IMG/VR virus record: IMGVR_UViG_3300042879_004844
DNA: 64,000 bases
From: an uncultured virus (IMG/VR IMGVR_UViG_3300042879_004844)
Taxonomy: Duplodnaviria; Heunggongvirae; Uroviricota; Caudoviricetes
Direction: 5' to 3' (one strand)
Notes under the pieces: model-generated
Databases searched by the model: none
Told to the model about the DNA's origin: nothing
The model's input: the letters and a program-made list of their open reading frames with translations, nothing else
Part shown: positions 7,043 to 60,186 of the stretch, piece by piece
How positions within the stretch are numbered: position 1 is the stretch's first letter
Layout: every line of letters begins with the position of its first letter
Position numbers and translations under genes: made by a program

Positions 7043-7071
7043 AAGCTATCCCTGCTGAGAGAGAATGGAAA
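7043..7071 (-). promoter_or_regulatory. Sigma70-like promoter for the capsid gene
   Basis: Minus strand TTTCCA-N17-TAGCTT with an upstream A-tract. Confidence 0.5.
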
Positions 7072-7798
7072 AGCTTTTTTTCTGCGAAGAAACCAGGCGT
7101 CGCCTCACCCAGTCGCGCGCGGTCGAATCCTTGACACCGTGCAGCCACACACAGTCGTCCTTCAGGAGATGCTCAAAGACAAAGGACTCGACGTTCCGGG
7201 CCTGGTAGAGATTTCTGATCTCCGAGATGTCCTCCCACCCGAGCTGATGAAACACGTTTGCCAGGTAGGTGTCCCAGGCGACTCTCGTGCTGCACCCCGC
7301 GAGGCGAGGATCGAGCGTCACGGTCAGCGGATCAAATAGGGCATTTCCGTTGATGTGCCCGACCCGGTGTTCGCCGTTCGGATGCCAACATCCGGCCACC
7401 ATGGACTCGGCCCGGTCCCAGGCGGCAAGAAGCCTCTGCGGCCAGTCGCGGACGAGCGGAACCGCGTCAGCCTCGGTCGTCAGGACGCAGTCATACTTCC
7501 ACTCTTTCGACCGATGCATTGCCGCCACGTGCTGCATCATGTCACACCAGACGCCGTTGGGACCAGCTGGAAATCCGGTCTCGTGACGCCTCGACCGATA
7601 CGGACGAACAACTGAAAAAGATTTGCCCAGCAGTTCCTCAAGCTCTCTTGGTCTCGGGCAGTCCCTGCGGTAGACGAGCATGGCGTCGACGTCCTGATAC
7701 GGGGTTCCGTCGGTAATCTCGGCGTGGAGTCTTGCCACCTCGGTCGCCATGTCGACGTCGCCGTGCCAGACCTGAAGAATGTAGAGAAGGCGGCTCAT
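7046..7798 (-). CDS. Glycosyltransferase-like protein (GT-A type)
   Basis: Likely start MSRLLYILQ at 7798 (ATGA overlap); GFPAGPN, TTEADAVP (DxD-like), HINGNALF and HGVKD motifs. Confidence 0.55.
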   Translation of the reverse strand: MSRLLYILQVWHGDVDMATEVARLHAEITDGTPYQDVDAMLVYRRDCPRPRELEELLGKSFSVVRPYRSRRHETGFPAGPNGVWCDMMQHVAAMHRSKEWKYDCVLTTEADAVPLVRDWPQRLLAAWDRAESMVAGCWHPNGEHRVGHINGNALFDPLTVTLDPRLAGCSTRVAWDTYLANVFHQLGWEDISEIRNLYQARNVESFVFEHLLKDDCVWLHGVKDSTARDWVRRRLVSSQKKSFSILSQQG

Positions 7799-8487
7799 TT
7801 CAGCGTCTCCTCGAGTTCGGCCCTCGCCGCGTCGATTCCTCCCCAGCTCCAGAACTGGCGGGCATGGACCCGCCCCTGCTCCGGAAGACGCCAGACAAAC
7901 TGGCCGTAAAAATACTTCCATGCGACGGCTCCGAGCACGTTGAATTCGCTGAAACTCCGGTGGGGACGAGAGATGACATACTTCTCGAATGGCATCCCGT
8001 GGATCTGCTCGATCAGCCGGCGCGTCTCGCCGTAGAGCCACCTGGGATACATGAAGGGATGACGGCGCATGAATTCATGTTCTGGGGCCCATCCAAGAAT
8101 CTCGGCCACGACCGGCTGCCACGGGCTGCCCGTCTTTTCATAGGGCTCGTGAAACAGAACGACCCGGCCGTCTTCCATGAAGTCCTCGGGCGACGTCTCT
8201 CTGGTCAGCATGACGTCCGAATCCATGTGCATGATTAGATCTGCGTCCGTGAACGTGTCGGCCAGCATCTTCGTGATCTGCTGCCCGATGTAGTCATCAT
8301 GATAGCGGGGACACTCATGGATGATCTCCTCGGTCAGGTGCCGAAGAGGACCAGAGTCTCCCTCTGGCACCACGATGTGCACCTTCCGAAATCCCCTGGC
8401 GTGGCGCCTGATCTGGTCAAGGCAGTGCCACAGCCAGCAGAAGTCACCGGGATAGGTCCTGATCAGGATGTCGGCGACGGGATGCAT
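7795..8487 (-). CDS. Glycosyltransferase-like protein
   Basis: QQITKM followed by IMHMDSDVML (DxD) and SEFNVLG, typical of nucleotide-diphospho-sugar transferases. Confidence 0.65.
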   Translation of the reverse strand: MHPVADILIRTYPGDFCWLWHCLDQIRRHARGFRKVHIVVPEGDSGPLRHLTEEIIHECPRYHDDYIGQQITKMLADTFTDADLIMHMDSDVMLTRETSPEDFMEDGRVVLFHEPYEKTGSPWQPVVAEILGWAPEHEFMRRHPFMYPRWLYGETRRLIEQIHGMPFEKYVISRPHRSFSEFNVLGAVAWKYFYGQFVWRLPEQGRVHARQFWSWGGIDAARAELEETLK

Positions 8488-9119
8488 AGGATGTCATACT
8501 GGAGGCCTCGCTCGGGCGGAAACGACCGCGTCGTGTAGCCGAGAGACCCGATGAACTCAAGAAGCTGGTCTGGCGTGGTGCCACGCCTCTCGAGAGCGTG
8601 CTCATTGACCTCGATCCACATGGACGGGCGGCATCGGCGAATCGTGTCGACGGCCCCGTGAAGGGCCTCGAGCTCGCATCCCTCGATGTCAAGCTTGATG
8701 AAGTCGCATCTCTCGAGGTTGATCGCATCAAGCGGGATCAGGTGGATCTCACCCGGGGTCTCAACGACGTGTCCGGCTCCGGCGTTGAGGGCCTGCGCGT
8801 ATCCAATCAGGCGTTCCTGGTCAGAGAGGCCTCCCTTCACGAGAATCGCCTCAGGACAGTTGTGCTCGAGACACTCGAGAGCCTCTGGATTGATCTCGAA
8901 GGCCACGACGTGCCCGTCTGGACCGACCCTGTCGAGATAGGCTCTCGTGTGATCTCCGATGAAGGCTCCGGCGTCGACCACCCAGTCTCCTGGCCTGACG
9001 TGCTCAAGGATGACCGGAAGAGCATATTGGTCATGGTCGAGACGACCCGCCTGCTCGACCCACGCCGAGATGTGGGTGTCGTGCTCGATGACGGCGATGT
9101 TGTTTGGCAGAATCTTCAT
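8463..9119 (-). CDS. FkbM-family SAM methyltransferase
   Basis: Start MKILPNN at 9119; VVDAGAFIGDHT, VVAFEINP, FIKLDIEGCELEALHGA and WIEVN motifs. Confidence 0.85.
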   Translation of the reverse strand: MKILPNNIAVIEHDTHISAWVEQAGRLDHDQYALPVILEHVRPGDWVVDAGAFIGDHTRAYLDRVGPDGHVVAFEINPEALECLEHNCPEAILVKGGLSDQERLIGYAQALNAGAGHVVETPGEIHLIPLDAINLERCDFIKLDIEGCELEALHGAVDTIRRCRPSMWIEVNEHALERRGTTPDQLLEFIGSLGYTTRSFPPERGLQYDILCIPSPTS

Positions 9120-9958
9120 AGAACCTCGTCCAGCGCCGACGTGTGCATGCCATAGACCCCGTGGCCGACATGGAGGGCGTGGAGCATCGTGTCGACGTGC
9201 GGCTGGAATCCGCATTCTTTTGCTCTTGCGCAGAAGGCAATGTCCTCGCCGCGTCCGTCGTTCTCTGGCTGAAAGAAGTTGAAGGGCATCTCGGGATTGG
9301 TCGGATTGAGCTTTGGAAACTTGGTCTGCATCGTCTCAAAGACCCGCCGGTGGATCAGAAGACAGCCAGTCCCGATCCAGTCGCAGGGCATTGTGCCATC
9401 GTGGAACGAGGCCGCCCTCGCCCGGTAGGTCTGATCGAGCGCCAGACTGTTGACGGCGCGTCCCCGGGGATGCCTGGTAAAATAGGTGGCTCCGACAATA
9501 TCCGCACCGTGGCCGATGAGCCGGTGCGCGACGTGCAGCGCCGTGGGAGCCGTGGGATACGAATCTGGCAGTCGGCACATCGCACGAAGGAAATCTGGGC
9601 GTCCGATCGGAGGAATCATGTCATCGTCGAGAAACAGGATCCACTGGGCCTGGGTCGCGAGAAACTTCATGGCGAGCTCGTTGCGGGCGTGGTAGATCAT
9701 CGCGTCGCCGACCTGCATGTCGAACCGGACTTTCTCCTTGCCGAGATCGAGCGCAATCGCGAGAAGACACCAGGCCGTGGCCGGGTTGGTCTGCTTGTAG
9801 CACGGAAAGCCGACAAACAGATCCCTGCCCAGCCACTCGGCCTCCTGCTTCCAGCCCAGCGGAGCCTGGGTCTGGATGACAGTCGTGGGCCCGAGATCGA
9901 GATCGTCGGGGTCGATCCCGTCGATTCGTCCGGCATTGGCCATACCGGTGTGGCTCAT
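9116..9958 (-). CDS. GT2-like glycosyltransferase
   Basis: IYHARNEL, ILFLDDDM, GTGCLLIHRRVFE, GEDIAFC and HVG motifs. Confidence 0.8.
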   Translation of the reverse strand: MSHTGMANAGRIDGIDPDDLDLGPTTVIQTQAPLGWKQEAEWLGRDLFVGFPCYKQTNPATAWCLLAIALDLGKEKVRFDMQVGDAMIYHARNELAMKFLATQAQWILFLDDDMIPPIGRPDFLRAMCRLPDSYPTAPTALHVAHRLIGHGADIVGATYFTRHPRGRAVNSLALDQTYRARAASFHDGTMPCDWIGTGCLLIHRRVFETMQTKFPKLNPTNPEMPFNFFQPENDGRGEDIAFCARAKECGFQPHVDTMLHALHVGHGVYGMHTSALDEVL

Positions 9959-23254: not shown

Positions 23255-23728
23255 AGTATCCATCTTCGCCCAACTGTCGACGAGTATGCGATGGTCCTGG
23301 CCTGTGCCGCTGCCCTCCGTTCCGAGGATCCCAGTCGCAAGGTCGGAGCCGTCGCGCTCGATCATGAGAACCGCGTCATCGCCACCGCCTACAACGGACT
23401 CCCATCTGGATGGGACGTCGCCGACGACTGGTGGCAGAACGACGACCAGCGCCGCAAGTTTGTCGTGCACGCCGAGTCCAATCTCTGCAGCCTGACCCAC
23501 CGCGGAGCCGTCAGGACCGTCGCCTGCACGACGATCCCGTGCGGTCCCTGCGCGCTCAATCTCATCGCGCACGGCGTCAAGCGCGTCGTCTATGGTCTGA
23601 CCTATCCGCGCGACGTCGCCGGCATGGAGATTCTCGACGAATACGGCGTCGAGCTCATCCACATGCCACTCAACCACATCAAGAGCTACATCACTCGCCT
23701 CTCCGATTCCCATGAACTCCCAGGTTGA
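23252..23728 (+). CDS. dCMP deaminase
   Basis: Start MSIHLRP; RSEDPSRKVGA, AYNG, HAESN and PCGPC zinc motifs. Confidence 0.9.
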   Translation: MSIHLRPTVDEYAMVLACAAALRSEDPSRKVGAVALDHENRVIATAYNGLPSGWDVADDWWQNDDQRRKFVVHAESNLCSLTHRGAVRTVACTTIPCGPCALNLIAHGVKRVVYGLTYPRDVAGMEILDEYGVELIHMPLNHIKSYITRLSDSHELPG

Positions 23729-24875
23729 TCACACGTCACGAGGCCACTCGCGCATCAGTCCGTCAAGGCTGAAGCCGCTGCAGATCTGCCCCGGCTACGA
23801 GTCCGACGACACGCCGTCTGCGGCAGCCGCTCGCGGAACCACGCTGCATGAGGTCATGGACACCGGCAAGATTCCTGCCACGCTGACAGACGAGGACCGC
23901 GAGGTCGCAGAGCAGACGCTCGCCCTGCTCGCCGACGCCGAGAGTCAGTCACCTTATGAGCCTCTGAAGGAGGTCGAGCTCGACTTTCGACCCCTCAAGT
24001 TCCGTGACTTCGACAAGGGGCATGCCGACCGGGTCATCGTGCTCGAGGCAGACGCCGACCACGAGCCGGTCTCTGTCGAGCTGATCGACTTCAAGTTTGG
24101 CCGCTGGGAGGTCGACCATGTGTCAGAGAACATCCAGTTCCGGGCCTACGCCCTCGGTCTGTTCATCCTGTTTCCGACCATCGAGAAGATCCGAGTCCGC
24201 CTGATTCAGCCGGCCCTGAAGGTCGACGACACGCACCTTTTCACCCGCAAGAAGGACTATGAGGTGATCGTGTCGCAGGTCGGAGCAATTGTTCGTCGCC
24301 GCCACCGGTGGCTGGAGACACAGGACAACGACATGCTGCGTCCGCATCCAGACATCTGTGGCTTCTGCGCCCGCCAGGCCAGCTGCTCGGCGTGGCAGCG
24401 CTACATGGTCAAGCTCGCCAACGACGCAGATCTGTTTGGCCACGAGATCGCGCCTCTCACGAGCCTCGAGTCGCCCGAGACCGCCGACCCAGAGGAGGTC
24501 GTCAGGGCGTTTCGCTGGATCAAGCCCATGGAGGACTATCTCAAGAAGTTCAAGCGTTTCGTGCTGGCAGTCCATGACGCGGGCCGACTGTCCGAGGGAG
24601 TCACAATCGTCGAGAAGTCTGGGGACACCTCAATCGTCGATCCCATCGCCGCGGCGAAGCTCTTGGAGTCTGAATTTGGCGTCACGTTTGACGAATTCTT
24701 GTCGGCCTGCGATGTCTCGGTCACGAAGATCAAGCAGCTCGTGGGTCAGCACGCAAAGACCGGAGAAAAGGGCGGCATGCAGTCGCTCGCGGTCGACCGG
24801 CTCCACGAGACCGGACTAATCCAGCACGGCGCCAGAGTGCGCTATGCACAACTCAGCAGGGGGAAAAAATCATGA
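23712..24875 (+). CDS. PD-(D/E)XK exonuclease (DUF2800/Cas4-like)
   Basis: HSRISPS..CPG, GTTLH, GHAD...IDFKFG, QFRAYALG and CGFCARQASC motifs. Confidence 0.85.
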   Translation: MNSQVDHTSRGHSRISPSRLKPLQICPGYESDDTPSAAAARGTTLHEVMDTGKIPATLTDEDREVAEQTLALLADAESQSPYEPLKEVELDFRPLKFRDFDKGHADRVIVLEADADHEPVSVELIDFKFGRWEVDHVSENIQFRAYALGLFILFPTIEKIRVRLIQPALKVDDTHLFTRKKDYEVIVSQVGAIVRRRHRWLETQDNDMLRPHPDICGFCARQASCSAWQRYMVKLANDADLFGHEIAPLTSLESPETADPEEVVRAFRWIKPMEDYLKKFKRFVLAVHDAGRLSEGVTIVEKSGDTSIVDPIAAAKLLESEFGVTFDEFLSACDVSVTKIKQLVGQHAKTGEKGGMQSLAVDRLHETGLIQHGARVRYAQLSRGKKS

Positions 24876-25153
24876 GCAGAGAAGAGGCAATGCAAAAATT
24901 TCACGAGGTGCTGCACGAGATGCTGCCAGAACTGGGAGTCATCACCGAGGACACCGACATGCTCGACGACCTCGGTCTGCTCGATCTCGACCTCATCGAG
25001 GTGCAGCTCATGCTCGAGGAAAAATTTTCGATCCAGCTCGACGACGCGGACACTGATGCCATTGGCATCGGCAACTACCGAGTCGGCGACTGGCTCGACA
25101 GGATCATGACGATCCGAACACAGCAAGAACAACAAACCAAGGAAACCAAATAA
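24872..25153 (+). CDS. Acyl-carrier-protein-like protein lacking the pantetheine serine
   Basis: ITEDTDMLDDLGLLDLDLIEVQLMLEEKFSIQLDD aligns by eye with ACP [20 protein letters not shown], with DSL replaced by LDL. Confidence 0.7.
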   Translation: MSREEAMQKFHEVLHEMLPELGVITEDTDMLDDLGLLDLDLIEVQLMLEEKFSIQLDDADTDAIGIGNYRVGDWLDRIMTIRTQQEQQTKETK

Positions 25154-25154
25154 A

Positions 25155-26114
25155 ATGGCACTGATACAGAAACTGTCTCTCCGTCGCAAGACGGCCGAGA
25201 CTCCGAAGACATCCGACGCGCCCGTCGCCGAGGAAACACCAGTCGAGACACCCGAGGTGTCCGAAACACCGCAGCCCGCTGCACAGCCCGCGAAGCGCCT
25301 GATCACCAAGAAGGCACTCGCCCCGGAACCCGATGAGGACATCATCGAGGCCGAGGTCGAGCCGGCTCCCGCGCCATCGAAGAAACTGGCGACTCGCCAG
25401 CCCATCATCGAGGCAGACGAGGACGATGTCGCATCCGAGACGGCCGTCGTGTCCTACCGCCCCATGGCGATGGGTCAGATCGACGGAGCCATCTCCGAGC
25501 GCGATCTCATGCGCCCGCGCGTCAACATGGTGCAGTCCAACAGCTCGGATCTCGAGTCGAAGGGTTTCACCGTCGGACAGATCGTCGTCAATGGCGAGGT
25601 CCTCGTGTGGGACAAGGGCTACGACCCGCTCAACCTGATCCTCATGACCGGGCGCAAGAAGTTCATCCAGCGCCTGACCGACGAGGAATACAAGGATGGC
25701 GTCACCCCGATGATCTTCGACTCGCCGAAGGACGCGGAGAGCGCCGGATTCTCGACCAACTGGGACGGCAAGGAACCTCCCACGGCCGACCCGGGACTGT
25801 TCTGCCTCTTCCTGCTCGAGCAGCCCGAATACATCGAGCCAGACCCGATCTTCAGCCTCGAGCACGCGGAGCGCAAGTTCTGTCTGGCTGAAATGAAGTT
25901 CACCGGCGTCAACTATCGTGCGGCCACGGCGGCGCGCTGGCTGATGACTCAGTCGCAGACCAGCCTGATCCCCGATACCCGCATGTTCATGCTCGGACTC
26001 ACCTGCAGCCGTGAGAAGCAGAAGTCCGGCAACATCGTGACCGTGGCCAACTTCAAGAATCTCGGACGCCACAAGGATCCGGGCTTCGCCGAGTGGGTCC
26101 TCAGTCTGGGATAA
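25155..26114 (+). CDS. ssDNA-binding / recombination-type protein (putative)
   Basis: Low-complexity N-terminus then DLMRPRVNMVQSNS; position between exonuclease and polymerase. Confidence 0.55.
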   Translation: MALIQKLSLRRKTAETPKTSDAPVAEETPVETPEVSETPQPAAQPAKRLITKKALAPEPDEDIIEAEVEPAPAPSKKLATRQPIIEADEDDVASETAVVSYRPMAMGQIDGAISERDLMRPRVNMVQSNSSDLESKGFTVGQIVVNGEVLVWDKGYDPLNLILMTGRKKFIQRLTDEEYKDGVTPMIFDSPKDAESAGFSTNWDGKEPPTADPGLFCLFLLEQPEYIEPDPIFSLEHAERKFCLAEMKFTGVNYRAATAARWLMTQSQTSLIPDTRMFMLGLTCSREKQKSGNIVTVANFKNLGRHKDPGFAEWVLSLG

Positions 26115-28643: not shown

Positions 28644-28822
28644 ACCCAAACCACAACACCAAGAAGTCACCCGACATCGATGAGGTCAACATGCGCGACG
28701 TGCTTGTCATGTTCTGCGCCGCCGGAATCCTGTCGGGCAAGATCAGCGTCAACCCAACCAAGGCCATCGATCTCGCGATCGAGGCGGCCGACCACTACCT
28801 CGAGAAGAGGGCCCAGTCATGA
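28640..28822 (+). CDS. Small phage protein
   Basis: ATGA-coupled; MRD...AAGIL...AIEAADHYLEKR pattern. Confidence 0.55.
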   Translation: MNPNHNTKKSPDIDEVNMRDVLVMFCAAGILSGKISVNPTKAIDLAIEAADHYLEKRAQS

Positions 28823-29310
28823 CCGAGCCAAGATCACTCCCAGATCCGCTGCCGCACTTCACCGTCATGGCCGTGCCCTATGATCCGATCACCCGAATGG
28901 TTGCGATGATGTGGCGCGGCGACCGCGTCCGCTCTGCCAAGAACTGCCTGTCGACCCCGGCGGGACTTCTTGAGCATGGCGAACCGTTCGAGGAGGGTCT
29001 TCTTCGTGAGCTCCGCGAGGAGATGGCGATCGAGCCAGACAACTGCTTCCGTGTCGAGTTTCAGACGATCTACCGCAATGACAATGGGGATGGTCTGGAC
29101 TGGGTGATCGGTGTATGGTCTGTCGCCGCCCGTGATCTCCAGCTCGTCGCCCGCAACGTCGAGCCCGACAAGCACGACTACCTTGTCTTCATGTCACTCG
29201 ATGATCTCGCCTCGCCCAATCCCATGCTTGACGGAAAGCCGGCGATGTTCGCGAGCTCTCTTCAGCCAGTTCTCAGGACCGTCGCCAAGCGCCTGATCCA
29301 GACCCTATGA
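28819..29310 (+). CDS. Nudix hydrolase
   Basis: Nudix box GLLEHGEPFEEGLLRELREEMAI. Confidence 0.88.
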   Translation: MTEPRSLPDPLPHFTVMAVPYDPITRMVAMMWRGDRVRSAKNCLSTPAGLLEHGEPFEEGLLRELREEMAIEPDNCFRVEFQTIYRNDNGDGLDWVIGVWSVAARDLQLVARNVEPDKHDYLVFMSLDDLASPNPMLDGKPAMFASSLQPVLRTVAKRLIQTL

Positions 29311-29993
29311 AGCGCCACCCGATCATTGTCCTTGAGGGACCCGATGCCGTCGGCAAGACGACGTGGGGACGCGAATACATGCGCCAGACCGGGGCCCGCT
29401 ACCTGCATCTTCCGCTGCGCAAGAGAATGTATGAGCATCAGGCGATGTCTCTCGCCCTGGCAGTCCACTGGTCGATCGAGAAGCCCGTCTTGATCGACAG
29501 ACACTGGCCCTCGGAGCAGCTGTATGCCGCCGCCTACCGTGGCGGGTCACCGATCTCTGCCGAGGCCGCCGTTCTCGATCGGGTCATGTCGTGTCTCGGA
29601 GTGACCTATGTCGTCTGTCTGCTCTCGAGTCCCGAACGGATGTTTGAGTCGCTGCGTCGCTCCCGCGAGGAACGTCATGAGATGTATGAGCCAGACGATC
29701 GCTACCGCGACCTGGTCTGCTGCTATTTTGACTGGTGGCACGGAACCGACCACACCACGACCAATCTCGGCCACTGCGAGACACTACGTGGATTCGGCAA
29801 CGCTCGTCCCCTGATGGCACACCTCTATGACTACGAGCAGATGGGACAGACGTCTCATGACATGTCCATGCACGTCCAGGACGTCCAGGACATTGCCTCG
29901 GCCATGCTCGAGGCGACTGACTTCAACGTGCATGCCGAGGACCTCGTGAAAGATCGCGTGCTTCTTCTCAACGAACTGAATCTCATCAAATGA
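29307..29993 (+). CDS. Thymidylate-kinase-like dNMP kinase
   Basis: IIVLEGPDAVGKTT P-loop and LIDRHWPSEQLY motif. Confidence 0.85.
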   Translation: MKRHPIIVLEGPDAVGKTTWGREYMRQTGARYLHLPLRKRMYEHQAMSLALAVHWSIEKPVLIDRHWPSEQLYAAAYRGGSPISAEAAVLDRVMSCLGVTYVVCLLSSPERMFESLRRSREERHEMYEPDDRYRDLVCCYFDWWHGTDHTTTNLGHCETLRGFGNARPLMAHLYDYEQMGQTSHDMSMHVQDVQDIASAMLEATDFNVHAEDLVKDRVLLLNELNLIK

Positions 29994-30847
29994 ACAACGA
30001 CAAGATCCCAAAGACCGCCACCGAGGCGTGGCTTCAGCTCATCGCAGACGTGTCTCTCAACGGCCGTCGATACAGTCCACGCGGCATGCCGGTCCGCGAG
30101 ATCATCAACAACACGGTGGCAGTCGACATGGCGTTTCCGGTCGTTCTGACAAAGAAGCGCCGGCTGAGCTACCGCTTCATGGCGGCCGAGGCCTGGTGGA
30201 TTCTTGCCGGCCGCCGCGACGTCGAATCGATCGGACGATACTGCTCGGCGATCAAGAAGTTTTCCGACGACGGGGAGACATTCTTTGGGGCCTACGGACC
30301 CAAGATCGCGCGGCAGGTCGAATACGTCGTGAACACGCTCAAGAGAGACCGCGACACGCGCCAGGCAGTTCTCACGATATGGAGAGAGAATCCGCCGCAC
30401 ACGAAGGACGTGCCCTGCACGGTGGCCGTCCAGTGGCTGATCCGCGACGGGCTGCTCCACTGCATCGACACGATGCGTTCAAGTGACGTCTGGCTCGGGT
30501 TTCCGTATGATGTCTTCAACTTCTCGATGCTGTCGTGGCACATTCTCGAGGCGCTGCGCGACGAGGGCATGGACCTCCAGCTCGGCACCCTGCATCTCAA
30601 CGCCGGATCTCATCACATCTACGAGAAGGATCTCGAGACCCTTTCCGGCTGGCACAACCACGACTGGTCAGAGGGACATGACTTTGATGCCGTCGCTGGT
30701 CATCGAATTGAGCGCGGCTTTGTCCACGGCTACCTTGCCGCGATCATCGGCGAGTATTCCGTCACCCCGAATCTCAACGAGCCTCATGGATTTTTTAAGT
30801 CCTTTGAGGATCGTCTCCTGAACACAAACAACCAACCCACAAAATAA
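29990..30847 (+). CDS. Thymidylate synthase homologue, dCMP (hydroxy)methylase-type
   Basis: GAYGP, DRDTRQA, catalytic PCT, MRSSDVWLGFPYD and HIYE motifs; Asp at the ThyA Asn177 position. Confidence 0.85.
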   Translation: MNNDKIPKTATEAWLQLIADVSLNGRRYSPRGMPVREIINNTVAVDMAFPVVLTKKRRLSYRFMAAEAWWILAGRRDVESIGRYCSAIKKFSDDGETFFGAYGPKIARQVEYVVNTLKRDRDTRQAVLTIWRENPPHTKDVPCTVAVQWLIRDGLLHCIDTMRSSDVWLGFPYDVFNFSMLSWHILEALRDEGMDLQLGTLHLNAGSHHIYEKDLETLSGWHNHDWSEGHDFDAVAGHRIERGFVHGYLAAIIGEYSVTPNLNEPHGFFKSFEDRLLNTNNQPTK

Positions 30848-30853
30848 AACGTC

Positions 30854-31711
30854 ATGGCAAACAAAAGAGGAAAAACCGTAGACACGACATTCTTGTCGCT
30901 CGACACCGCCGAGAAACGCGGATTCTTGCATCGCGACTACATCGCCCACTGTCTGAGATGGAGCCACATCATGCGCCGCCTGTCAGAGGGCAAGGCCTAT
31001 GCCGAGGCGACCATTCTCGACGTCGGCTGCGGCCGTGAACTCCCGATGGCAAAGACGCTCTACAGCTCTCGCTACATCCCGAAGCGCTACATTGGGATCG
31101 ACGTCGGGCCGATCCTCGACGAGGCGATCGAGGTGTTCCACTCGGGCAAGTTTCCGCTCGAGGCATACGAGAAGACCGACATCTGCGACGCGACCGACGA
31201 GTTTGCCAACCAGGTCGACATCATCGTGTGTCTCGAGGTCCTTGAACACGTCGAACCGGAGCACATGCTCCGCATGCTTGACTCGTTCAGAGAGATGCTG
31301 AAAAAGGACGGGCGCGCCTTCATCTCGACTCCCTGCTGGGACGTCAAGACCTGTGCCGACAACCACGTCAACGAGATGCGTCACGAGACTCTCGGGGCCG
31401 TCTTCGAGCGCGAGGGCTGGATGATCCAGGCCGTCCACGGGACATTCGCCTCGATCAAGGACTACAAGGAAGAATTCACGCCGGCCCAGCGCGAGATCTT
31501 CGAGCGTCTTCGCGGCTACTACGACACCAACTACCTGGCCACGATCTTTGCCCCGATGTTCCCGCGGCAGTCCCGCAACTGCATCTGGGAGATCGTCGAT
31601 TCTGGGAAGAATCCCGAGCTCGTGGAGTCCTATGAGTGTCAGTATCCCGAGATCACGGAGGTTCCGGAGCCCTGGGGGTCGTCAGAAAACTGGAAAGAAC
31701 TCGCTCGGTGA
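30854..31711 (+). CDS. Class I SAM-dependent methyltransferase
   Basis: ILDVGCG, YIGID, CLEVLEHV and ISTP motifs. Confidence 0.85.
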   Translation: MANKRGKTVDTTFLSLDTAEKRGFLHRDYIAHCLRWSHIMRRLSEGKAYAEATILDVGCGRELPMAKTLYSSRYIPKRYIGIDVGPILDEAIEVFHSGKFPLEAYEKTDICDATDEFANQVDIIVCLEVLEHVEPEHMLRMLDSFREMLKKDGRAFISTPCWDVKTCADNHVNEMRHETLGAVFEREGWMIQAVHGTFASIKDYKEEFTPAQREIFERLRGYYDTNYLATIFAPMFPRQSRNCIWEIVDSGKNPELVESYECQYPEITEVPEPWGSSENWKELAR

Positions 31712-36334: not shown

Positions 36335-36463
36335 ATGGACCCCGACATTCTCATCATCCTGCGGGCGTTCATCCAGATCGCCTGGAACTTCTGGCCAGCC
36401 CTGGTGTTCATTGCACTGGGGCTGGCCGTGGTCCTGGCCTGGGAACGGGCAGACCGAGACTAG
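36335..36463 (+). CDS. 42-aa membrane peptide
   Basis: MDPDILIILRAFIQIAWNFWPALVFIALGLAVVLAWERADRD; stop overlaps the convergent giant gene. Confidence 0.5.
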   Translation: MDPDILIILRAFIQIAWNFWPALVFIALGLAVVLAWERADRD

Positions 36464-39400
36464 CCGCCGCGGATCACGTCTCGCATCGTCTCACGAATGG
36501 CGCGCTTCCACTCTTCCTCATTGGGAAAGTCCTTCCGGGTGATGCCCATGCGATCTCGCAGATAGGCGATGGTCTTGCGGCGGTCCTCGGAATAGAGACC
36601 ATAGTCAAAGTTGCCGTCGTCATCGGTGTAGCGGGGGTTGTAGCCGGGCATGAATCTGGCCCCCGACAGAGGAGCCTGATCAGACACCGGGGCCGCGACT
36701 CCGGCAAGACTCTGGTCATCCTGGGATGATCCGGATGGGCCCGCGGGCATGAATCTGGCCGCCATGGAACGTCCGCGGTCATCCTGAATCTCATAGTCAT
36801 GATCGAGTCGCAGTCTCGTGAGGGTGTCCCTCTGGGATGAGTTCGGAGTCCGTCCGCCAATGTTGACGCGACTGCCCTGCCGGACAACTCGCAGATAACC
36901 CTCATTCTCGGCGGCCATCTGGGCCTTTTCGTCGGACTCGACGTTGGGATAAAACGACCGCGCGGCGATGCGGTGTTCGGATCCCGGATCCACGTTCACG
37001 ATCTCGCCATCTGGAGTGATCCAGGCCTTTTGGCGAAGAGACGGGACATCCTCATCGGGATCATAGAAGCCCGCCGGCATGAATCTGGCAGAACTTCCGT
37101 AGGGTTCTATCCGATCCTCTTCCAGCTTGAGCTTCTTCTCGATGGCCGTGTCTTTCAGCTCTTTGAGCATCTTCGGAGTCGGACGTCCCTCATACCAGAG
37201 AGTCCTGCCCATCCTGCGGACGCGCACGAAGCGGCGATCCTTGAGATCGTCGTAGTTCACTCGGCGGAGATCAAACAGATCCTCAGGAAAAATGTCGAGA
37301 TGGTCGTCCACGTTGACCCAGCCCCTCGGGGAGAGCCACGCCGATTCGCCCTTGAGCCGGTCCTCGACCCTGGCATTGGCATCCTTCACGATCCGATCCA
37401 CGAGTGAGGCCCGGCTTGCCGGCATGAACTTGACTCCAGATGTGTCAAATTTGTCGTCCGTGTCCCAATCCCAAACGGCCTTGATTGCCAAGGATGGTAT
37501 TTTTCCAGTATAGACAAAATTTCCATCCCCAAAAATAGAGTCTTCATCTGATGAAGCTTGTGACATTTGGCTCCGGATATAGTCAAACACCTTATTCCAG
37601 TCTTTAGATTTTGTGGTTCTATAATGATAGATCCCGGCTTGTTCTGGATCAGGAAACATGCGTTTTGGGTCCAGTTTGGATGTATCTACCGAAATGTGGA
37701 ACGTGTTTTTATCGTCGACGTCCCATCCCCCATCAAAATCTGGATCCAGGGCAAAATAAGTGTTTCCCTTGAAACCTTGTGACAAGATTTTTTTTGCGTT
37801 TTTGCGCGTTGTCCCATGACTAACAATGAAACCTTTTTTCACTCGCTCTTGAAACGCATCAAAAATTTTTTGATTTTCTTCAGAAAGTTCGGATCTATTT
37901 ACGGGCATGAACTTGGCCCCGGGCCCCGTGCCGCCACCGCCCTTGTCCGGTGGATTGTTCTCAAGAAACTCGCTGATCTTGTCGTAGAACGCGTCGAGCA
38001 TGTCCGAGGGCTCGCGATACTCGCCCGGGTCGAGCATGAAATAGCCGACCGAGTCCTCCATGCCGGGCTCGACGTAGATGTTGACCCTGGTTCCTCCGAG
38101 TCCAGAGGCGATCGGCTCAAACGTGTATTTGCCGAGTGACGTCGTTTCGTCGTTCATCAGGGCCTCGGCGGCCTCGTTGATCATCTGCGTTGTGATTGAC
38201 TTGGTCTTGGATGCCGGCGCAGACGTGGCTCCGAGAGTCGACAGGGCCTCGTAGATGGCCGCCTCGAGGTCCATGGGTTCCATGTTCTGCGATCCCTGGA
38301 TCGGGATGATGCCGAGAACTTCATTGTCCTTGTTGTAAGCAGAGATTGCCACAGATCCAGACTGCGTGACGCCCTTGGCAAACTTCTTGCCGCCGATCTC
38401 GACGACCTCGATGTCTGGGTCCATCAACTGGGCCGCCGCCTGCATCGCGAAGTCCTGCTCCGGAGTCAGGAGCGACTGGGCCTCGGGTGTCTTCCAGTCC
38501 TTCATCCAGTCAAGCGCGAAATAGTCGTCGTAGATTCCCTTAGGACCGGTCATGGGAGTCGCCGTCTCTGGCTCAAACGGAATGGTGTTTGACACGGCAA
38601 CGCCATTAAGTTTTACGACGGCCGCGGTGATTTCACCAGAGTCGTCCTCGATGCCCTCGAGCTCCCATGTGTTTCCGTCGATCGTGGTTGGCTCGTCGAG
38701 CAGCGCGTCATTGAGAAATTCCATGGCCTGTTTCTGGGCCGCGGTCTCGTCTTTTTTCTCCGGGCTTTTTTGATTCAGATACTTCGCGGCCTCTCGGATG
38801 ACGTAGGCAAACGGCCCGATCGCGAAATTCTTGTCGTCCTTGATGAACTGATACATTCCGTCCTCCGCGACCTGCTTGACGATCTTGACCTCGTCTCCCT
38901 GGCCGTTCGTGAGAACCACGGACTTCCACTTGCCATCCTTGGTGGCCTGTGCATCGTCAAGAGTCACTCCCAGATTGTCGACAAATTTCATCAGTGCGTC
39001 GGAGTCGGCAAGAATCACGGGATCCGCCTCATTCTCCGAGGGTTTCAGATACGGGTGGCTGGGATTCGCGGCATCGAAGATTGCCAGGGCCGTCTCAGAG
39101 ACAGACGGGAGGACTCCGTTGTCGGCCCAGTATTGCATGATGGCTGTCTTGTTGCCGGGCGCCCACTCGGTCACAAACGGATCGCCCTGCTCGTCCTCGT
39201 ATGGATTTGTCACGGCCGTGCCCGAGTTCGCCGTGAAATACACGTGGTTGGTCCCGCCGATCTCACCCTCTTCAAACGGTCCGACCATGGCGGCCGCCTC
39301 GGCGACGGTCATGAGGGTGTCGTCTGCCTTGGCATATCCGACTGCCGGAGAATCCAGGGTCAGCCCCTCTTCCTCGACCTCTTCGATCATGTCGGCCGCC

Positions 39401-42400
39401 TTGCGCTTCTCAAGCTTGTCGGATGCCCACTTGCCGACGTCGTAGAGATACTTGCCGAGGGCCTCGACATCGCCCGCCCCGATTGAGTCAGTGATCATGG
39501 CCTTGGCCGGAGCGCCGGCCCCGCTGAGCAGCAGGGTCTCGACATACTCGGCCGAGGCGTCGATGTCCGAGGGCGGGAGATTTGCCAGGTTGACATCAAC
39601 CCACTCGAGATCCTGGAGATTCTTGATCAGCTGGTTGACTCTGGCTTTGGCCGAGACCGGCAGGACCGCAATGAGGTCTGAGACTTTCTGGCTCGGTGCC
39701 GGCATCTGCGGCTTCATCTCGGCCTTCAGATTCTGCTGCATCCAGTCGGCGGTGTTGCCATAGCCGTTCATCTTGGCACGCATGAGCGCATACTCGGCGA
39801 GCCAGTCGACGATGTCACGCTTCTTGCCGCCTGGAATCGTGGCCGTGGTCAGAAGATTGCCCTCAGACACAGAGTCTCCCTGATAGACCTTGAGAGTCGC
39901 GGCCTGTCCAGACCCACCGGCGTTGACAACCGTGACGTCGCCGAGCTTCAGGCCGTTAAATCCGTTGAACAGCAACCCCGTGACAAACTCATTGAGATTT
40001 GAGGGAGTCGACTTGTCAAGCTTGGGCTGGAACACATTTCCTATGAACCATTGGTCTGACCACGATGACGTTTTGGCCGCGCTAGGAGCATTGAGCGCGC
40101 TCTTCGCGATGTCCTTGTTGATCATCTCGGTCGCGAGCTCGATGCTGCCCACCATCGGCTTTCCTTTTGTGGTCATCGCTATGCTGTAGCTGTTGACCGG
40201 CTTGCCGTTCTTGTAGAGAGTCAGCGTGTTCAGTTCGGAATTCTTGGAAACAAGCTTCACCGTCCATTCTCCCTCTCCGAAGCCGTCTCCGACCACCTTG
40301 GAACTTGCCGCCATGTTGACCATGTTCTTGGTTGCCTTCAGGACCCCAGAGGATGAAGACTTCTCGGAGAGACCAGTCTCCATCTTCGTCGGAAGCGAAG
40401 GTGTCTTGCCAGTGACGCGCGGGTCCCGGCCCTCGACGAGCAGCATGCGGAAGAGCTTGACGGCGTCGGTCCTGGCGACCCCGAGATCTCCAAAATGATC
40501 GTCGAGGATGATCCCAATGTGCGCGTTCTGGTCCTTCTTGATCGCCTTCCAGTCGTCGTTCTTTCCGCCATTCTTGCGAAAGATTCCCTCGGCCGCGTTG
40601 GCAATGTTTTCAAACGGGGCCTCGCGACGAACTCCGCTCGATGACTTGCGATAGTAATCTGAGACCAGGTCCTTGAGAAGATCAGTGAACTGGGACGGGT
40701 CCATGTTTTCGACCAGCGTGGGCGGAAGCTGCTCGATGACCTTGGCTTCGAGATCCTGTGTGAGGGGCGCATCGGCGCGCATGTCGGCAAACCAGGCGTC
40801 GGCCAGTTTCCCCATGGTGCCGCTCACGAATCCGCGGAGTTCTCGAGGATTTGCCACATTGGCCTTGAAGTCAAGCATCTTGGCGATCCAGCCGTATCCC
40901 TCGACCCCGAGATAGTATTTCTTGAGCTTGTTGAAGACCGTGTTCGTGTTGTGCTGCAGGTCGTAGGCCCGGTCGATCTCCTGGAACATGGCGTTGTAGG
41001 CGCCCGGGTCGCGGAACTCGTTGGTCTCGATGATCTGCATGCGGCCGGTCTCTGGATCGGTCGCGACGGCGCGGACTCGCTCGGTGGAATATGTCGGATC
41101 TGACATCTGGGCGAGATGGGCCGCGATGTCGCCCCATGGGTTTCCGCCGTAGCTCGACGACCAGTCGCCGCGACGATACAGCTGCTCGGCAAAGCGCGCC
41201 ACGTCGGCGATGCCCATGCCCAGTTTCTTGCGAGCATTTTCCATCGCGACAAAAGAGGCCCGGTAGCCCTCGCTCTCTCCCTTGTAGCGGCGCGGTCCCT
41301 TCTCTTTCTTGAGATCTGGCATGCCGGCACCCTGGATCGCATACTGCCGCATGTATTCCTGATAGAATTCGGTCTCGGCGAGATCGGCTGGCTGTCTGCG
41401 CGGAATGGCATGGCGAAGTTCGGCCGCGATCGCAAAATGCAGTGCCTTCTGGATCTTGCTGTGGAGAGACGGGATGAGCGTCTGCTTGGCCTCATCGAGG
41501 GCGTCCTGATATTTCTCGGCGCGCACTCCGGCATAGCGTCCGGTCGGGTCTGCCGAGGGAGCATACATGGTGGCCTCGCCGCCAAACTTGCCCATGCTCC
41601 ATCCGGTCGGCGGGGTCGTGATCATGGCGTTAAGCATGTAGAAGTCGGCCATGGTCTTCTTCGGATCGTCGGGAAGCGACGTGTAGCGGATGCCGGGAAG
41701 GAACCGAGGCATGGCGCCGCCGACAATGTCGTTCTCGACCGGAGCATCCTGAAACTGGTCGAGACGAAGCGACCGTGCCTCGTTCTCTGGGAAAAAATTG
41801 ACGAGCATCTTGCCGTAGTCGACAGGAAGCTTCTGGGCGTTGCTGATCTGCATCTGGTTGATGCGGTCCATGCGAGCCGACATGATCAGGCGGTCGGCCG
41901 AGTCCTTCCCGCGTCGCGCCGGAAGCGTGGTCCTCGATGGATTCAGCGACTCAGTCTCCTTGGTGAACAGATTGAAAAAGTCGTTGATGCGGTTCTTTTT
42001 CTGCATCGCGATGTCGGGATCGACGTCAAGTCCGGTCTGTCCAGCCAGTCCCCGGTTGTGGTTGTCGAGCACCCGGGTCACGTCCTCCCAGAACTTGCCG
42101 AGATCGCGTCCCCAGAGATTGAGATTCTCTGGCCGCTTCTGTGACCAGAGATTCATCTTGTCGAACATGCGGCTGACCGAGATGGTCGTGGCCAGAAAGT
42201 TGCCCTGCTTGCTGAACTGATACCCAATCGGCACGACGTCGCGGATGCGCGGACTGAGGGCCCGATACCTTCCGCCGCGAAGGGCCGCCTGGTATTCCAT
42301 CAGGATGCGAGTCCCGTCGCGTTTCTGGAGCACCTCGTTGAAGGCGGCTATGTTCTTCTTGAGAGACGGGGGAATCACGCTGTTGGGCAGTGCCATGACG

Positions 42401-45400
42401 GCCTCGAGCTGCGACGGGCTCATGACCCCGCGATAGCTCCCGTTTCCGGTGTCGCGGAGTCGTCCCTCGAAGCCGTCCTCTGGCGCGTTGTCGATCGCGT
42501 CCTTGATCATCTGGTCGCGCTGGCGAGCCCGCGCCTGGATCTCCTTGTTTGTCAGAATCTTGGGACTGCCGTCAGGATTCCTGGCGATGCGACTGTCGAT
42601 CGAGGCGCGCGATCCGTCTGGGAGACCGGACAGGTCGATGGTCGGTGTGAGTGGCAGGGCATTGCCATTCTCGTCAACCAGCCGCCCGTTGACAATCCGG
42701 TATTCTCCGGTGGCAGAATCGGTCGTGGGGTCATCGGGAATCACGATCTGCGCGACGGTGTTTCCCTCGTCGTCCTGGACATCAAGAACGGTCTCCTTGT
42801 CCCAGATGACATCATCCTTGTATGCCTCCTGCAGGGCTCGGTTTGTCATCAGCTCAGTGACGCTGATCTCGACCTCGCCTTCAGTGGTGCCGCCGGCATA
42901 GGTGAGCATGTCGTTGAACTCGCGAAGGTTTCTCTTGTATTGGCGCATGATCGCCAGGGCATCGGGATCAAAGGGTGCCTGGTCTCCAAAGATCACGGAC
43001 TTCACGTCTCCCTTTGAGTCGAGTTCAACTCCCATGGCCTCGAGGGCCTGGCGGAGTCGCCCGAGCATGGAATTTTTTCGAGAAATGAGAAGACGGTCGA
43101 CAACGGCCTGACCAGGCGAATCGAGTGCCTCGCGGATCGTGGAATAGCCGGTCTCGGACAGCGCCGACAGTTCGGACATGAGCTCGGAACGGACATACTC
43201 GACGGCCTGCTGCGGCGACGCGAAAGAATCACGAAACTTGGTCTCGCCTCCGGGACCGTAGAGTCGCTCGGCATACATCGGGATTCCAACGTCGTTGATC
43301 CAGTCGTCGGTGATAATTCCCGGGGTCGCCTCGAGCACCGTGCCGTCGGGACGGACGATTCGCTTGCCGAACCACAGGTCTCTCACCGGGCGCTGCATCT
43401 CCTGGACCTCGCGGAACTGCTCAAGAATGTGGTTGCTCTCGTGCTGCAGCAGATAACGAAGACCCACGCGGCGCGGATCACGCATCAGCTGCTCGGTGTT
43501 CATCACGATCGTCGGGGCCCCGATGTTGGCCATCCGAAGATGGGCCGGGGCATCGGCCTGGTCGGAGTCTGACAGCGCGAATCCCGTCTGTTGTGGCCAG
43601 AGCTGCACCTGCTCCTGAAATTTTTGGACGGCCTGGTTGGCACGCAGGAGTGACTGTTCCTCGGATGGACTGAGATCGGTGCGGCCTCCGAGCTGTGTGA
43701 CGATCGCCTCGGCCTGTTCAAGATTCTGTCCCCAGCGCTCGCGAATGAACGACTCGATCTGAGACGGGTCAAGAATCTTCACGTTCACGCCGTTGAGACC
43801 CGCGGCCCTGCCGTTTGACTTAAGAAGATCGAGGCCGTCTGCCATGATGAGCTCGACGGCCCGGCGGCGCTCGTCGCGGTCTTCCTGCGTCAGATCCTTG
43901 GTGCTCTCCTGCAGGGCCGACAGTTCATCGGCCTTTTGGGTGATGACGGCATCGAGCTCGGCCGTGTCTTCCTCGGCATAGTCGGCCTCGGCCTTGCGCT
44001 GGAACAGTTCGTCGAGCTCTCGCATGCGAGACGCGACCTGTTCCTCTGGGCTCGAGAGCTTTTCAACCTGCCGCACAAGCTCCGGATCGGCCGTCGCCCG
44101 GAAGCGCTTGAGATCGGCATCCTCGTCGAGACGACGATCGAGCGGGTCGATCTCGGTCACCCGGTCGATCTTTGTGGCAAGGCCGGTTGTCGGATCAAGG
44201 GCTGCCCCGATGCGCTCGGGCACGCGGCCGGCCATGTAGGAGCCGATGCCGAAGCCCACGCCGGTGGAGCGGCCAAATTCTTCTGCGGTCTCGATGTCGG
44301 CTGCCCCGATGATACCGTTCAGCGCGGCGCCAGAGACACCCGACTTGGTGAGACTGTTCGCGAGACGCAGACCGTAGTCGGCGGTGCGGGCTCGCATGAC
44401 CCCGCCGCGTCCGGGTCTGATCGGTTCCTTGCCCTCGGCAACGCGCTGCTTGTTCTTGCGCTCCATCTTCTCGAGCCGCTTCTGTGCGCCGGGTCCAAAG
44501 AGGTCGCGGATCCAGTCGGCAGACTGGGGGTCTCTTCCGAGTCGCTCGACGATGCCGGTCCGTCCGCGAATCCCGCCCTCGTCGATCTGGCGGCCGACAT
44601 CGCGAAGCGTGCGGCCGACTCCCTCGACCAGCTGACCAGGTCTCTTGGTGAATGCCGAGACGATCGTGCCAGGTGCCGCCAGGAAGGTGTCGGGACGTCC
44701 CGTGATTGCCTGGCTGATGCCTGCTCCGACCTTCTCGGCTCCCTCGCCGACCCTCCGGATTCCGATGCCAACACCTTCAAGAGGATTGACGCCCCTGATC
44801 GTGGGCTTTGTCACGCCTCGCACGGCGAGTCCGCCCGCGGCCTCCATGGTTCCGCCGAGCGCGCTCGTGACGGGCTTCACCAGCCTGGCCGGAAGACCGA
44901 CCGGAGACAGGACCTCGCCGAGCATCGAGATGTCCTCGTCTGGTCTGAACTTGGCCTCCTGAAGCAGAGATTCTTCGTATCCGGCAAGAGCGGCTCGTTT
45001 CGCCTCTGGCGTCAGGGCTCCCTGTCCAGACAACATCGCGGCTCCCTCGATCACGGTCCCGGCGAGCGGGTTTCTGGCCAGCAGGGTCGCGGCACGATCG
45101 GGATTCTCCTGGATGTCCTCAGCCTCGCCGCGGCGCATGTCCTCGCGAGCAAGATAGTTGTTAAAAGATTGTTCTGGCGTGACGAGTCCGAGTTTCTCGG
45201 CGGCACGGTCAGTGATGCTGGTTCCAAACATCGCGGCCCTCGTCGCGGCATTTGCCGTTTCTTCCATGTCCTGCGCGACCCCGGAGGCCAGCGAACGCAC
45301 GGCCCGGTTTGCGCCGCCATACGTCTGCGACAGGGCTCGCTCATACTCGTCTGATCCGGGCTCATACTGCAGCCCGGCAAGCACGGTCTGGCCGATGGGC

Positions 45401-49332: not shown

Positions 49333-50163
49333 CTATGCAGAATCCTCGCGGCTGAGTCCGCAGTAGGCAAAGTTGGGCTCGACCCAGGGCACCCGGTGTG
49401 ACACGTTGTTCACGTCGATGCCATACTTGGGACACCTGACAAAGGAGGCCGAGGTCGGGTCGCAGCACTTCGTGCAGGTGTGAAAATAGTCGGAATTCGT
49501 CGAGTTCTTCTTGAGAACCTGCCGGTTCTTGACGTCATAGCGCGTCTCGTCGTGCGGCACCGAGTGCCTCTCATGGTATTCAAAGACGTCATCGTCGGTC
49601 CATTCCCGGATCGGATAGAGGATCGTCCCGGCATTCTCGAGCTGGAGTCGGTCGACCTGAAGTGGCACACGGCCGACGGTCGGGTCGTCGTCCGACGACT
49701 TGTGGCCCATGACCATGCAGTCCCACGGAAAGTTGTAGGTCCCAAGCGGACGAGAAAGAAACGTCTCGAGGGCGCAGAGAAACGGATGCCCCTCCTCTGG
49801 GACGATCGTCCCACGGGCCACCATGATGTATTCTGGCTTCTGGGCCGCCGAGCTGACCTGGTAGCATTCCATGATGTCGACCCGGCTCTCCTTCCCTCGA
49901 CAGAGACTGACGGCAGACGGGGCATAGTCGTGGGCCTCGAGATTCCACTCGTCGATGATCCTGTTGATGAAGCGCAGCTTCTCGGGCATCCAGGGCTCTC
50001 GCCAGCAAACGACTGGAAGTTCTCTCTTCATGAGAAACTTCAGCATGTGCAGGACCACCATTGAGTCCTTGCCGCCCGACCAGAGAATGACCGGGTTCCT
50101 TGCCGTCTTCAGCATGCGGTCAAGAAAGTCGACCGCGACCTCGACCTTTCGGTCGAGCGTCAT
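49333..50163 (-). CDS. PAPS-reductase-family (PP-loop) protein
   Basis: LWSGGKDSMV, GHKSSD, YPIREWTDDDVFEY and Cys-rich CTKCC...C...C tail. Confidence 0.8.
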   Translation of the reverse strand: MTLDRKVEVAVDFLDRMLKTARNPVILWSGGKDSMVVLHMLKFLMKRELPVVCWREPWMPEKLRFINRIIDEWNLEAHDYAPSAVSLCRGKESRVDIMECYQVSSAAQKPEYIMVARGTIVPEEGHPFLCALETFLSRPLGTYNFPWDCMVMGHKSSDDDPTVGRVPLQVDRLQLENAGTILYPIREWTDDDVFEYHERHSVPHDETRYDVKNRQVLKKNSTNSDYFHTCTKCCDPTSASFVRCPKYGIDVNNVSHRVPWVEPNFAYCGLSREDSA

Positions 50164-59301: not shown

Positions 59302-59736
59302 TCACAGAATCTTTCGGAAATAGAGGGCACTCCTGCCTCCCCAGACGTGGTGGGGAGAATACAGCCGGAAGCCGCAGGAAATGAGCGAATTCGCACTCGC
59401 AAGATTTGATGGAACCACGTAGGTCACGAGTTCTTTCAGTCCGACTCGGCGAGCCTGGGCGATCCGTCTCCGGATGAGTTCCTTCTGCCGTCCCTGGCCT
59501 CGCCAGTCTCGCAGGACTCCGACCCTCGATAGAAATCCCAGTCCGGCGTTGTGCCTGGACGTGCAGGGACGCAGGGCGGCATAGGCGACGGGCGTCCGGT
59601 CCTGTTCCTCGATCCACCAGTAGCAGCCCTCGACGCGGACGCGCCAGTCGGCAGGAAAGCACAGCTGGTCGAGACGCAGAATGGTGTCCCGGATCCACTC
59701 CGGGCACGAGTCTGGCCTGGCGACGAGCCGGGTCAT
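59302..59736 (-). CDS. GNAT-family acetyltransferase
   Basis: FLSRVGVLRDWRGQG acetyl-CoA motif A and NLASANSLISCGF. Confidence 0.88.
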   Translation of the reverse strand: MTRLVARPDSCPEWIRDTILRLDQLCFPADWRVRVEGCYWWIEEQDRTPVAYAALRPCTSRHNAGLGFLSRVGVLRDWRGQGRQKELIRRRIAQARRVGLKELVTYVVPSNLASANSLISCGFRLYSPHHVWGGRSALYFRKIL

Positions 59737-59739
59737 GGC

Positions 59740-60186
59740 TCACAGGATGTCGAGATCCCTCCCGAATGCCTTGCTCGAGGGATACGTGGGCTTGCAGTGG
59801 GGCCACGTGATCTTCCAGCGCTTTCCGTCCTTTGAAAGAATCCCGACCTTCCCGGAGCCGCGGCGGCGTCGCACCCGGGAGCCCTCCATCGGCTCTCTTG
59901 CGGGCGTGGGCTCGTCAGATTTTTTGAGATCTGCCGCGACCGGCGTCTCGTTCTTGCCGAGCTCCCGGTAGCCGGTGATCCGGACCAGGCGCTTGAGCTT
60001 GTTGTCCCAGACCGTGAAGTCCTGGCGCTCGACCGTGCCGGCACGGATGCCGGGGGCGAGAAGCGAGGCCACTCTCTCGGGACTGCACTCGAGCTGTTCG
60101 GCCACGTCGTCGCGGCTCGACCAGCCCCTCGGCCATGCATAGGCCGCGGCGTTTTGTTTTTCCAGTATGGATTTCCAGTTAGGCAT
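59740..60186 (-). CDS. Winged-helix-like hypothetical protein
   Basis: WSSRDDVAEQLECSPERVASLL HTH-like segment; follows the phosphoesterase. Confidence 0.5.
   Translation of the reverse strand: MPNWKSILEKQNAAAYAWPRGWSSRDDVAEQLECSPERVASLLAPGIRAGTVERQDFTVWDNKLKRLVRITGYRELGKNETPVAADLKKSDEPTPAREPMEGSRVRRRRGSGKVGILSKDGKRWKITWPHCKPTYPSSKAFGRDLDIL

Follow-up and report, generated by a model that had tools for sequence, protein, structure and literature searches.

A conserved acyl carrier protein-like protein without the attachment serine in the replication operon of an uncultured phage

A small gene in the replication operon of an uncultured phage encodes a conserved, predicted non-loadable protein of acyl carrier protein (ACP) fold that looks like an ACP, fails ACP membership at its defining serine, and represents a family that is new, although its variant recurs among phage ACPs. 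Because the 93-aa protein combines an ACP fold, loss of the attachment serine, sequence conservation and a retained acidic docking helix II, it is non-loadable and probably a binding module, as the original prediction had proposed; we put the chances at roughly even that it mimics the ACP surface and acts on a host protein that binds ACP. In the literature, lipid-synthesis auxiliary metabolic genes regularly include phage 'acyl carrier proteins' (PMC8224337, PMC5463345), some of which cannot carry anything. Conservation of a non-loadable ACP implies a cofactor-independent target, and such a protein would naturally inhibit or modulate a process that depends on ACP.

The window (the whole stretch of DNA analysed, 64,000 nt, 59.8% G+C) reads as a phage genome, and the sequencing runs listed for it are all lake-water metagenomes (24/24), two of which may be its source. 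Its + strand carries genes for a helicase, a dCMP deaminase, a DUF2800 exonuclease, the ACP-like protein, a probable SSB and Pol A, together with a NUDIX protein, a kinase, a thymidylate-synthase-like enzyme, a methyltransferase and a primase, and the virion genes lie on the - strand. The start ATG of the ACP-like ORF shares ATGA with the stop of the upstream exonuclease gene (Table 1). The probable SSB downstream has no match in Pfam, PHROG or PDB sequences, and its fold matches are weak (BRCA2 OB, Z 5.7; gp32, Z 4.0). The long, disordered N-terminus of this SSB-like protein (25155-25500, + strand) begins with a conserved K-L-S-L, which in four related contigs (L034, L036, L037 and L040) is followed by repeats built of Glu runs and Lys-Lys motifs.

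Table 1. Features of the ACP-like gene and its immediate neighbours in the window.
Feature	Position	Strand	Remarks
DUF2800 / PD-(D/E)XK exonuclease, upstream neighbour	23712-24875	+	PF10926 E 2.6e-12; phrog_69
ACP-fold protein, 93 aa	24872-25153	+	net charge -15, pI 4.1
Leu37-Asp38 (CTC GAT) replacing the ACP Asp35-Ser36 attachment motif	24980-24985	+	
Helix II (residues 38-51), ACP recognition helix	24983-25024	+	
Ser53, invariant 48/48, C-terminal to helix II, with no D-S-L context	25028-25030	+	
Helices III (58-65) and IV (71-92), family motifs DxxTDAIG and RxGxWxxRI	25043-25147	+	
Probable SSB, downstream neighbour	25155-26114	+	disordered charged N-terminus, beta-rich core

The 93-aa product contains the motif DDLGLLDLDLIEVQLMLEEKF. 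When phmmer aligns it, without gaps, to helix II of T. maritima ACP (6lvt, E 1.7e-7), D38 is equivalent to E. coli Ser36 and L37 to Asp35, and codon 38 reads GAT (24983-24985), in agreement with the earlier claim that an Asp stands in place of the phosphopantetheine serine; the additional loss of Asp35 had been absent from that claim. By this alignment, neither the Asp nor the Ser of the D-S motif survives. Ser36 is necessary for conversion to the carrier form (PMC13159022, PMC3340395), and the attachment serine is described as invariant before helix II (PMC13159022). Because neither Ser36 nor Asp35 is present, phosphopantetheine at the canonical site is predicted to be impossible. A sequencing error at codon 38, an eventuality raised at the outset, is ruled out: the codon is GAT in all six close IMG/VR contigs and GAC or GAT in both metagenome relatives, and contigs of four lake-water runs from different studies, none of them marked as the window's source (4/4), carry no variant at 24983-24985 and show synonymous variants at 24973, 24976 and 24982. 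A wrong reading frame for the ORF was likewise rejected.

The AlphaFold model, based on a 48-sequence alignment (mean pLDDT 89.3), contains four predicted helices (residues 3-17, 38-51, 58-65 and 71-92). Its best match by VIA is T. maritima ACP (6lvt; Z 11.9, rmsd 1.7 Å, 79 residues aligned, 34% identity), tied for top rank with an ACP-sized chain of the chloroplast motor complex; Foldseek gives TM 0.70-0.75 to several ACPs, and the PDB fold matches listed are carrier proteins or carrier-domain-containing entries. Structure prediction thus returns the four-helix ACP fold that had been anticipated, and a non-ACP fold was rejected, the top Foldseek and VIA matches being ACPs. On the level of sequence families, Pfam PP-binding (PF00550) scores 16.3 bits, under its 20.8 cut-off, TIGR00517 scores 25.2 bits against a cut-off of 70.45, and all 12 NCBIfam ACP models match the protein, every one below cut-off. 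PHROG 5934 'acyl carrier protein' matches at E 3.8e-6, and the ESM Atlas returned only ACP-family clusters.

A homologue search kept 47 of 49 candidate proteins at 57-98% identity, making 48 sequences with the query; the search required shared 5-residue words, which biases the conservation estimates high, and in this set position 38 is Asp in 42 sequences, Trp in six and Ser in none, with no Asp at position 37 (0/48). The expectation that the Asp would be conserved in phage homologues is therefore borne out for the absence of serine and not for Asp itself, which is not universal. A profile search over 1.84 billion representatives yielded 150 proteins, including three distant family members whose residue at the serine site is Arg, Lys or Glu, and among 163 aligned domain rows Ser occurs in 134. 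The acidic character of helix II is maintained: D40, E43, E49 and E50, the counterparts of ACP D38, E41, E47 and E48, are present in 48, 46, 48 and 47 of the 48 sequences, and the residues matching ACP D31, D38, E41, E47, E48 and D56 are retained in 94-100% of the family. Q45, at the place of ACP Val43, is invariant in the family, and no more than 8 of the 134 Ser-bearing rows have Gln at that place; Leu at ACP position 35 is fixed in the family and found in 1/134. Because both residues are so rare in Ser-bearing rows, the surface of the family, as judged from these alignments, has drifted away from host ACPs. Furthermore, the family-specific L37, Q45, M47 and W74 suggest one specialised partner rather than a general decoy.

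Compared with AcpP (PF00550, TIGR00517; 6lvt/6lvu), the 93-aa protein has in common the four-helix fold, the acidic helix II/III and a DDLG motif before helix II, whereas it lacks Ser36 and Asp35, carries an invariant Gln at Val43, scores under the curated cut-offs and has a helix IV that is longer and contains a conserved Trp. Its genomic place also differs, the gene lying in a phage replication operon; the scanned window proteins include no fatty-acid synthesis families, no fab or acpS gene was found, and a PPTase is absent from all five related records. Helix II is the partner-recognition helix of ACP (PMC3340395), and the 93-aa protein probably docks as ACPs do. Cofactor-independent action of ACPs has precedents: apo- and holo-AcpP stimulate MukB equally (PMC8602292), and glycerol-3-phosphate acyltransferase is inhibited more by apo-ACP than by holo-ACP (review PMC3896788). 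In both cases the surface docks without an acyl chain, as proposed for the 93-aa protein, although they involve the host's own loadable ACP and the likeness is one of analogy. As for SpoT and MukB, the partners named in the original prediction, SpoT reportedly does not bind apo-ACP (review PMC3896788), and the V43E change in E. coli ACP abolishes binding of both (PMC3340395). Val43, which both need, is Gln in the family, so that the two proteins are poor candidates as specific targets. To our knowledge, MukB is limited to some gammaproteobacteria.

A canonical Ser-bearing ACP query has matches in 419 GenBank phage records, from which 16 complete-phage records were hand-picked from the top 60 rows (omitting small unannotated contigs, host-like contigs and duplicates) and a further eight from 40 rows distributed over the ranking. 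In this sample of 24 cultured phages, which was hand-picked from a Ser-biased query and is not a census, Ser is kept in 16/16 of the first set and in two of the second, the other six carrying Asp or Glu, for totals of 18/24 Ser-intact and 6/24 Asp/Glu-type. The Asp/Glu-type proteins, labelled 'acyl carrier protein' or 'hypothetical protein' in GenBank, belong to the Ackermannviridae IME250, XF4, BPS5 and KP6F1, to Pseudomonas phage Lu11 and to Vibrio phage K444. Like the 93-aa protein, they have an acidic residue at the serine site and keep the helix II acids; unlike it, with its L-D-L, all but one of the six retain Asp35 (D-D-L or D-E-L), and their gene neighbours differ from those in the window. 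Since tblastn at E 1 matches the 93-aa protein to no GenBank phage, the two groups are probably of separate origin. Acidic replacement of the attachment serine thus recurs independently among phages.

An Asp-forced pattern scan returned 19 IMG/VR loci, and the contexts of the 11 inspected varied, some being fusions; in L106, L108 and L099, Asp-type ACP domains are fused into longer proteins of unrelated phages. Ser-intact phage ACPs (P-HM2, pf16, RP13, Ccr29; PHROG 5934; the contigs L037, L039 and L040) are likewise phage-encoded, stand-alone ACP folds, but they keep D-S-L/I/F (18/24) and could be loaded, which the 93-aa protein cannot. Among them, the gene of Rhizobium phage RHph_X2_24 (L115, 707-1392) lies directly upstream of a MazG-like gene, and Pseudomonas phage HRDY3 (L123, 1-964) has tandem ACP genes. 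In the literature, the function of phage ACP homologues is called 'unclear' (PMC5463345) and the proteins are treated as lipid auxiliary genes (PMC8224337, PMC13573597); a search of full-text literature, whose coverage stops short of supplements and most subscription journals, found no published description of Ser-less phage ACPs.

The slot between exonuclease and SSB was surveyed by a scan with the SSB alignment, which gave 15 viral contigs. It holds a Ser-less ACP-like gene in six, a Ser-intact ACP in three (L037, with G-A-D-S-L-D, L039 and L040), a weakly similar ORF in four and no gene in two. The weakly similar ORF (L031-L033 and L035; 79-80 aa, with T-D-L-D) aligns to ACP with an hhalign probability of 4.9% (E 0.008; 36/500 shuffles score equally well) and has no NCBIfam match, and its ACP homology, argued from position, size and a short motif, is weakly supported. 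In L034 and L036 the slot is reduced to 50-70 bp without a gene, both neighbours being present, and no ACP was found elsewhere in these records, which are 64% and 31% complete; in L037 it carries an extra 91-aa ORF. Because the slot holds other content or nothing in related contigs, the Ser-less ACP gene is optional and not a required replication adaptor. The suggestion of an acidic adaptor for the exonuclease and SSB-like protein is weakened accordingly, both neighbours being kept without a gene between them in 2/15 contigs.

In an eight-gene tree, the Ser-less clade and the diverged-ORF clade split from the rest (79/80), and the two gene-less contigs group with the Ser-bearing L037 (100/100); rooting close to L039 is only weakly supported. 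A two-gene tree supports the Ser-less pairing at only 40-43%, and a tree of the ACP genes, built from 58 sequences and 81 columns, does not join the family to the Ser-intact genes of L037, L039 and L040 and lends no support to descent from them. Most simply, the slot would at first have held a Ser-bearing ACP, with one serine loss and one gene loss later; the ACP gene tree does not confirm this course, and the slot gene may instead have been replaced repeatedly. The distinct value of this family is that a single locus offers relatives with the serine, without it and without the gene, a natural comparison set among uncultured phages.

In the proposed mimicry of host ACP, the pseudo-ACP would be produced alongside the replication genes during infection and would occupy the basic ACP-docking patch on a host protein, candidates being a lipid-synthesis or ACP-modifying enzyme, an ACP-dependent regulator or a defence protein. 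Docking would block or retune this target without acyl-chain delivery, with Asp38 perhaps substituting for the cofactor phosphate or just capping the helix. Since unrelated phages with different gene neighbours also have Asp/Glu-type ACPs, a shared host target is favoured over a phage-specific one. The lack of a PPTase in the related records and the empty slot in two of the contigs also count for mimicry. Against it counts the replacement of the exposed Val43 by Gln, a position at which change to Glu breaks several E. coli interactions. In addition, a decoy would need higher affinity than the host's own ACP, which is present in large amounts (about 100 uM in E. coli; PMC8602292). Since Ser is kept in most of the phage ACPs sampled above, the ancestral phage role may have been cofactor-dependent and different from mimicry.

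The original description of the Asp as possibly phosphomimetic fits the comparison across phages, where the six Ser-less ACPs of cultured phages all carry Asp or Glu, better than the family itself, where Trp occurs in 6/48 and distant members have Arg or Lys. Because Trp, Arg and Lys occur at the site, phosphomimicry is not required in the family; Asp appears to be a recurrent serine substitute across phages that is not essential within the family, and phosphomimicry is possible and unproven. Asp and Glu are favoured at helix starts, which offers a plain structural rationale for an Asp at the first turn. A broader and more tentative proposal, which we regard as doubtful though worth stating, is that phages repeatedly turn a captured, loadable ACP into a Ser-to-Asp/Glu mimic of holo-ACP, directed against an ACP-dependent host checkpoint not recognised so far, possible examples being a lipid-stress sensor and an ACP-reading anti-phage system. 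The Ser-intact, Ser-less, heavily diverged and deleted states in one slot of this phage group would then be stages of that process, and, were it true, many 'fatty-acid auxiliary metabolic genes' of phages would be host-takeover or counter-defence proteins.

Among the competing explanations, the one that survives best, although we consider it unlikely, is that the protein is a structural cofactor dedicated to a phage replication protein (Pol A, helicase, primase, exonuclease or SSB), much as MukB uses AcpP or T7 polymerase uses thioredoxin. A host cofactor would have been captured, its serine would have become dispensable, and gene-less relatives would use host ACP. The fixed replication-operon slot with its ATGA overlap, the Ser-intact copies in the same slot of 3/15 contigs, and the drift from the host ACP surface, as expected from co-evolution with a private partner, all fit such a role, and by analogy the MukB-AcpP role needs no phosphopantetheine. 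The slot is nevertheless empty between intact neighbours in two contigs and accepts other small genes (the 91-aa ORF of L037), distant exonuclease loci contain no ACP-like ORF, and unrelated genes flank the Ser-less ACPs of other phages.

Less probable again is an acidic DNA mimic built on an ACP scaffold that would block a host DNA-binding defence enzyme. Ocr is a precedent for DNA mimicry, and the net charge and pI of the 93-residue protein (Table 1), as well as its position among DNA-metabolism genes, are compatible with such a function, yet the charge per residue lies near that of ordinary ACPs (-0.17 ± 0.02 in the family vs -0.14 ± 0.05), the conserved acids are ACP's own, and the PDB fold matches listed are all carrier-type entries. 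Slightly more improbable still is a decaying or near-neutral remnant of a captured ACP gene. The gene is optional, the sister-clade ORF has diverged almost past recognition, and in deeper pairs dN/dS reaches 0.35 vs 0.11-0.17 in the neighbours, about 2-3 times higher; however, dN/dS is well under 1 in every pair (0.03-0.35 in 6/6 family pairs; neighbours 0.06-0.17 in comparable pairs), the window and contig L001 differ by one non-synonymous and eight synonymous changes, and 17 columns are invariant across the 48 sequences at identities down to about 57%. By these sequence comparisons, the gene is kept by purifying selection and evolves faster than the replication core. Hardly credible, finally, is a protein that still acts as a carrier through a different residue, for example Ser53. 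This serine is invariant (48/48) but comes after helix II, at the end farthest from the PPTase site and without a D-S-L context, and ordinary ACPs often have Ser there too (26/134 rows). The attachment serine is described as invariant before helix II (PMC13159022), and related records lack a PPTase.

Searches by Pol A, terminase, capsid, SSB profile, L037 ACP and tblastn found no cultured relative or host. Against cultured phages, Pol A reaches about 25% identity or less and the terminase about 24%, and the probable capsid protein has no match; neither the SSB profile nor the L037 ACP found prophage relatives in genome contigs, and no tRNAs were found in the window. In a distant phage group (L064-L088; seven loci inspected), the DUF2800 exonuclease is apparently split into two ORFs, some loci having a small ORF between the halves, with no ACP-like gene detected. 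About 900 bp interrupt the Pol A match in L039 (6048-8804), possibly an intein or intron.

Elsewhere on the + strand, the thymidylate-synthase-like protein (29990-30847) matches CMP 5-hydroxymethylase 5b6d at E 2e-23 and thymidylate synthases at best at only E 4e-12, which, together with the adjacent NUDIX, kinase and methyltransferase genes (28819-29993, 30854-31711), suggests phage DNA cytosine modification. A link of the ACP-like protein to base hypermodification was considered; for SP-15, PMC5977210 lists only an ACP reductase. On the - strand, FkbM methyltransferase, DUF6492 and glycosyltransferase-like genes (7046-9958) adjoin the probable capsid gene and could decorate virion or DNA, and a 3115-aa ORF (36460-45807), with one short PHROG stretch as its near-sole family match, is probably an internal virion protein. 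The same strand encodes a PAPS-reductase-domain protein (49333-50163), a GNAT acetyltransferase (59302-59736), a metallophosphoesterase (60179-61189) and an M15 peptidase, a probable endolysin (61202-61783).
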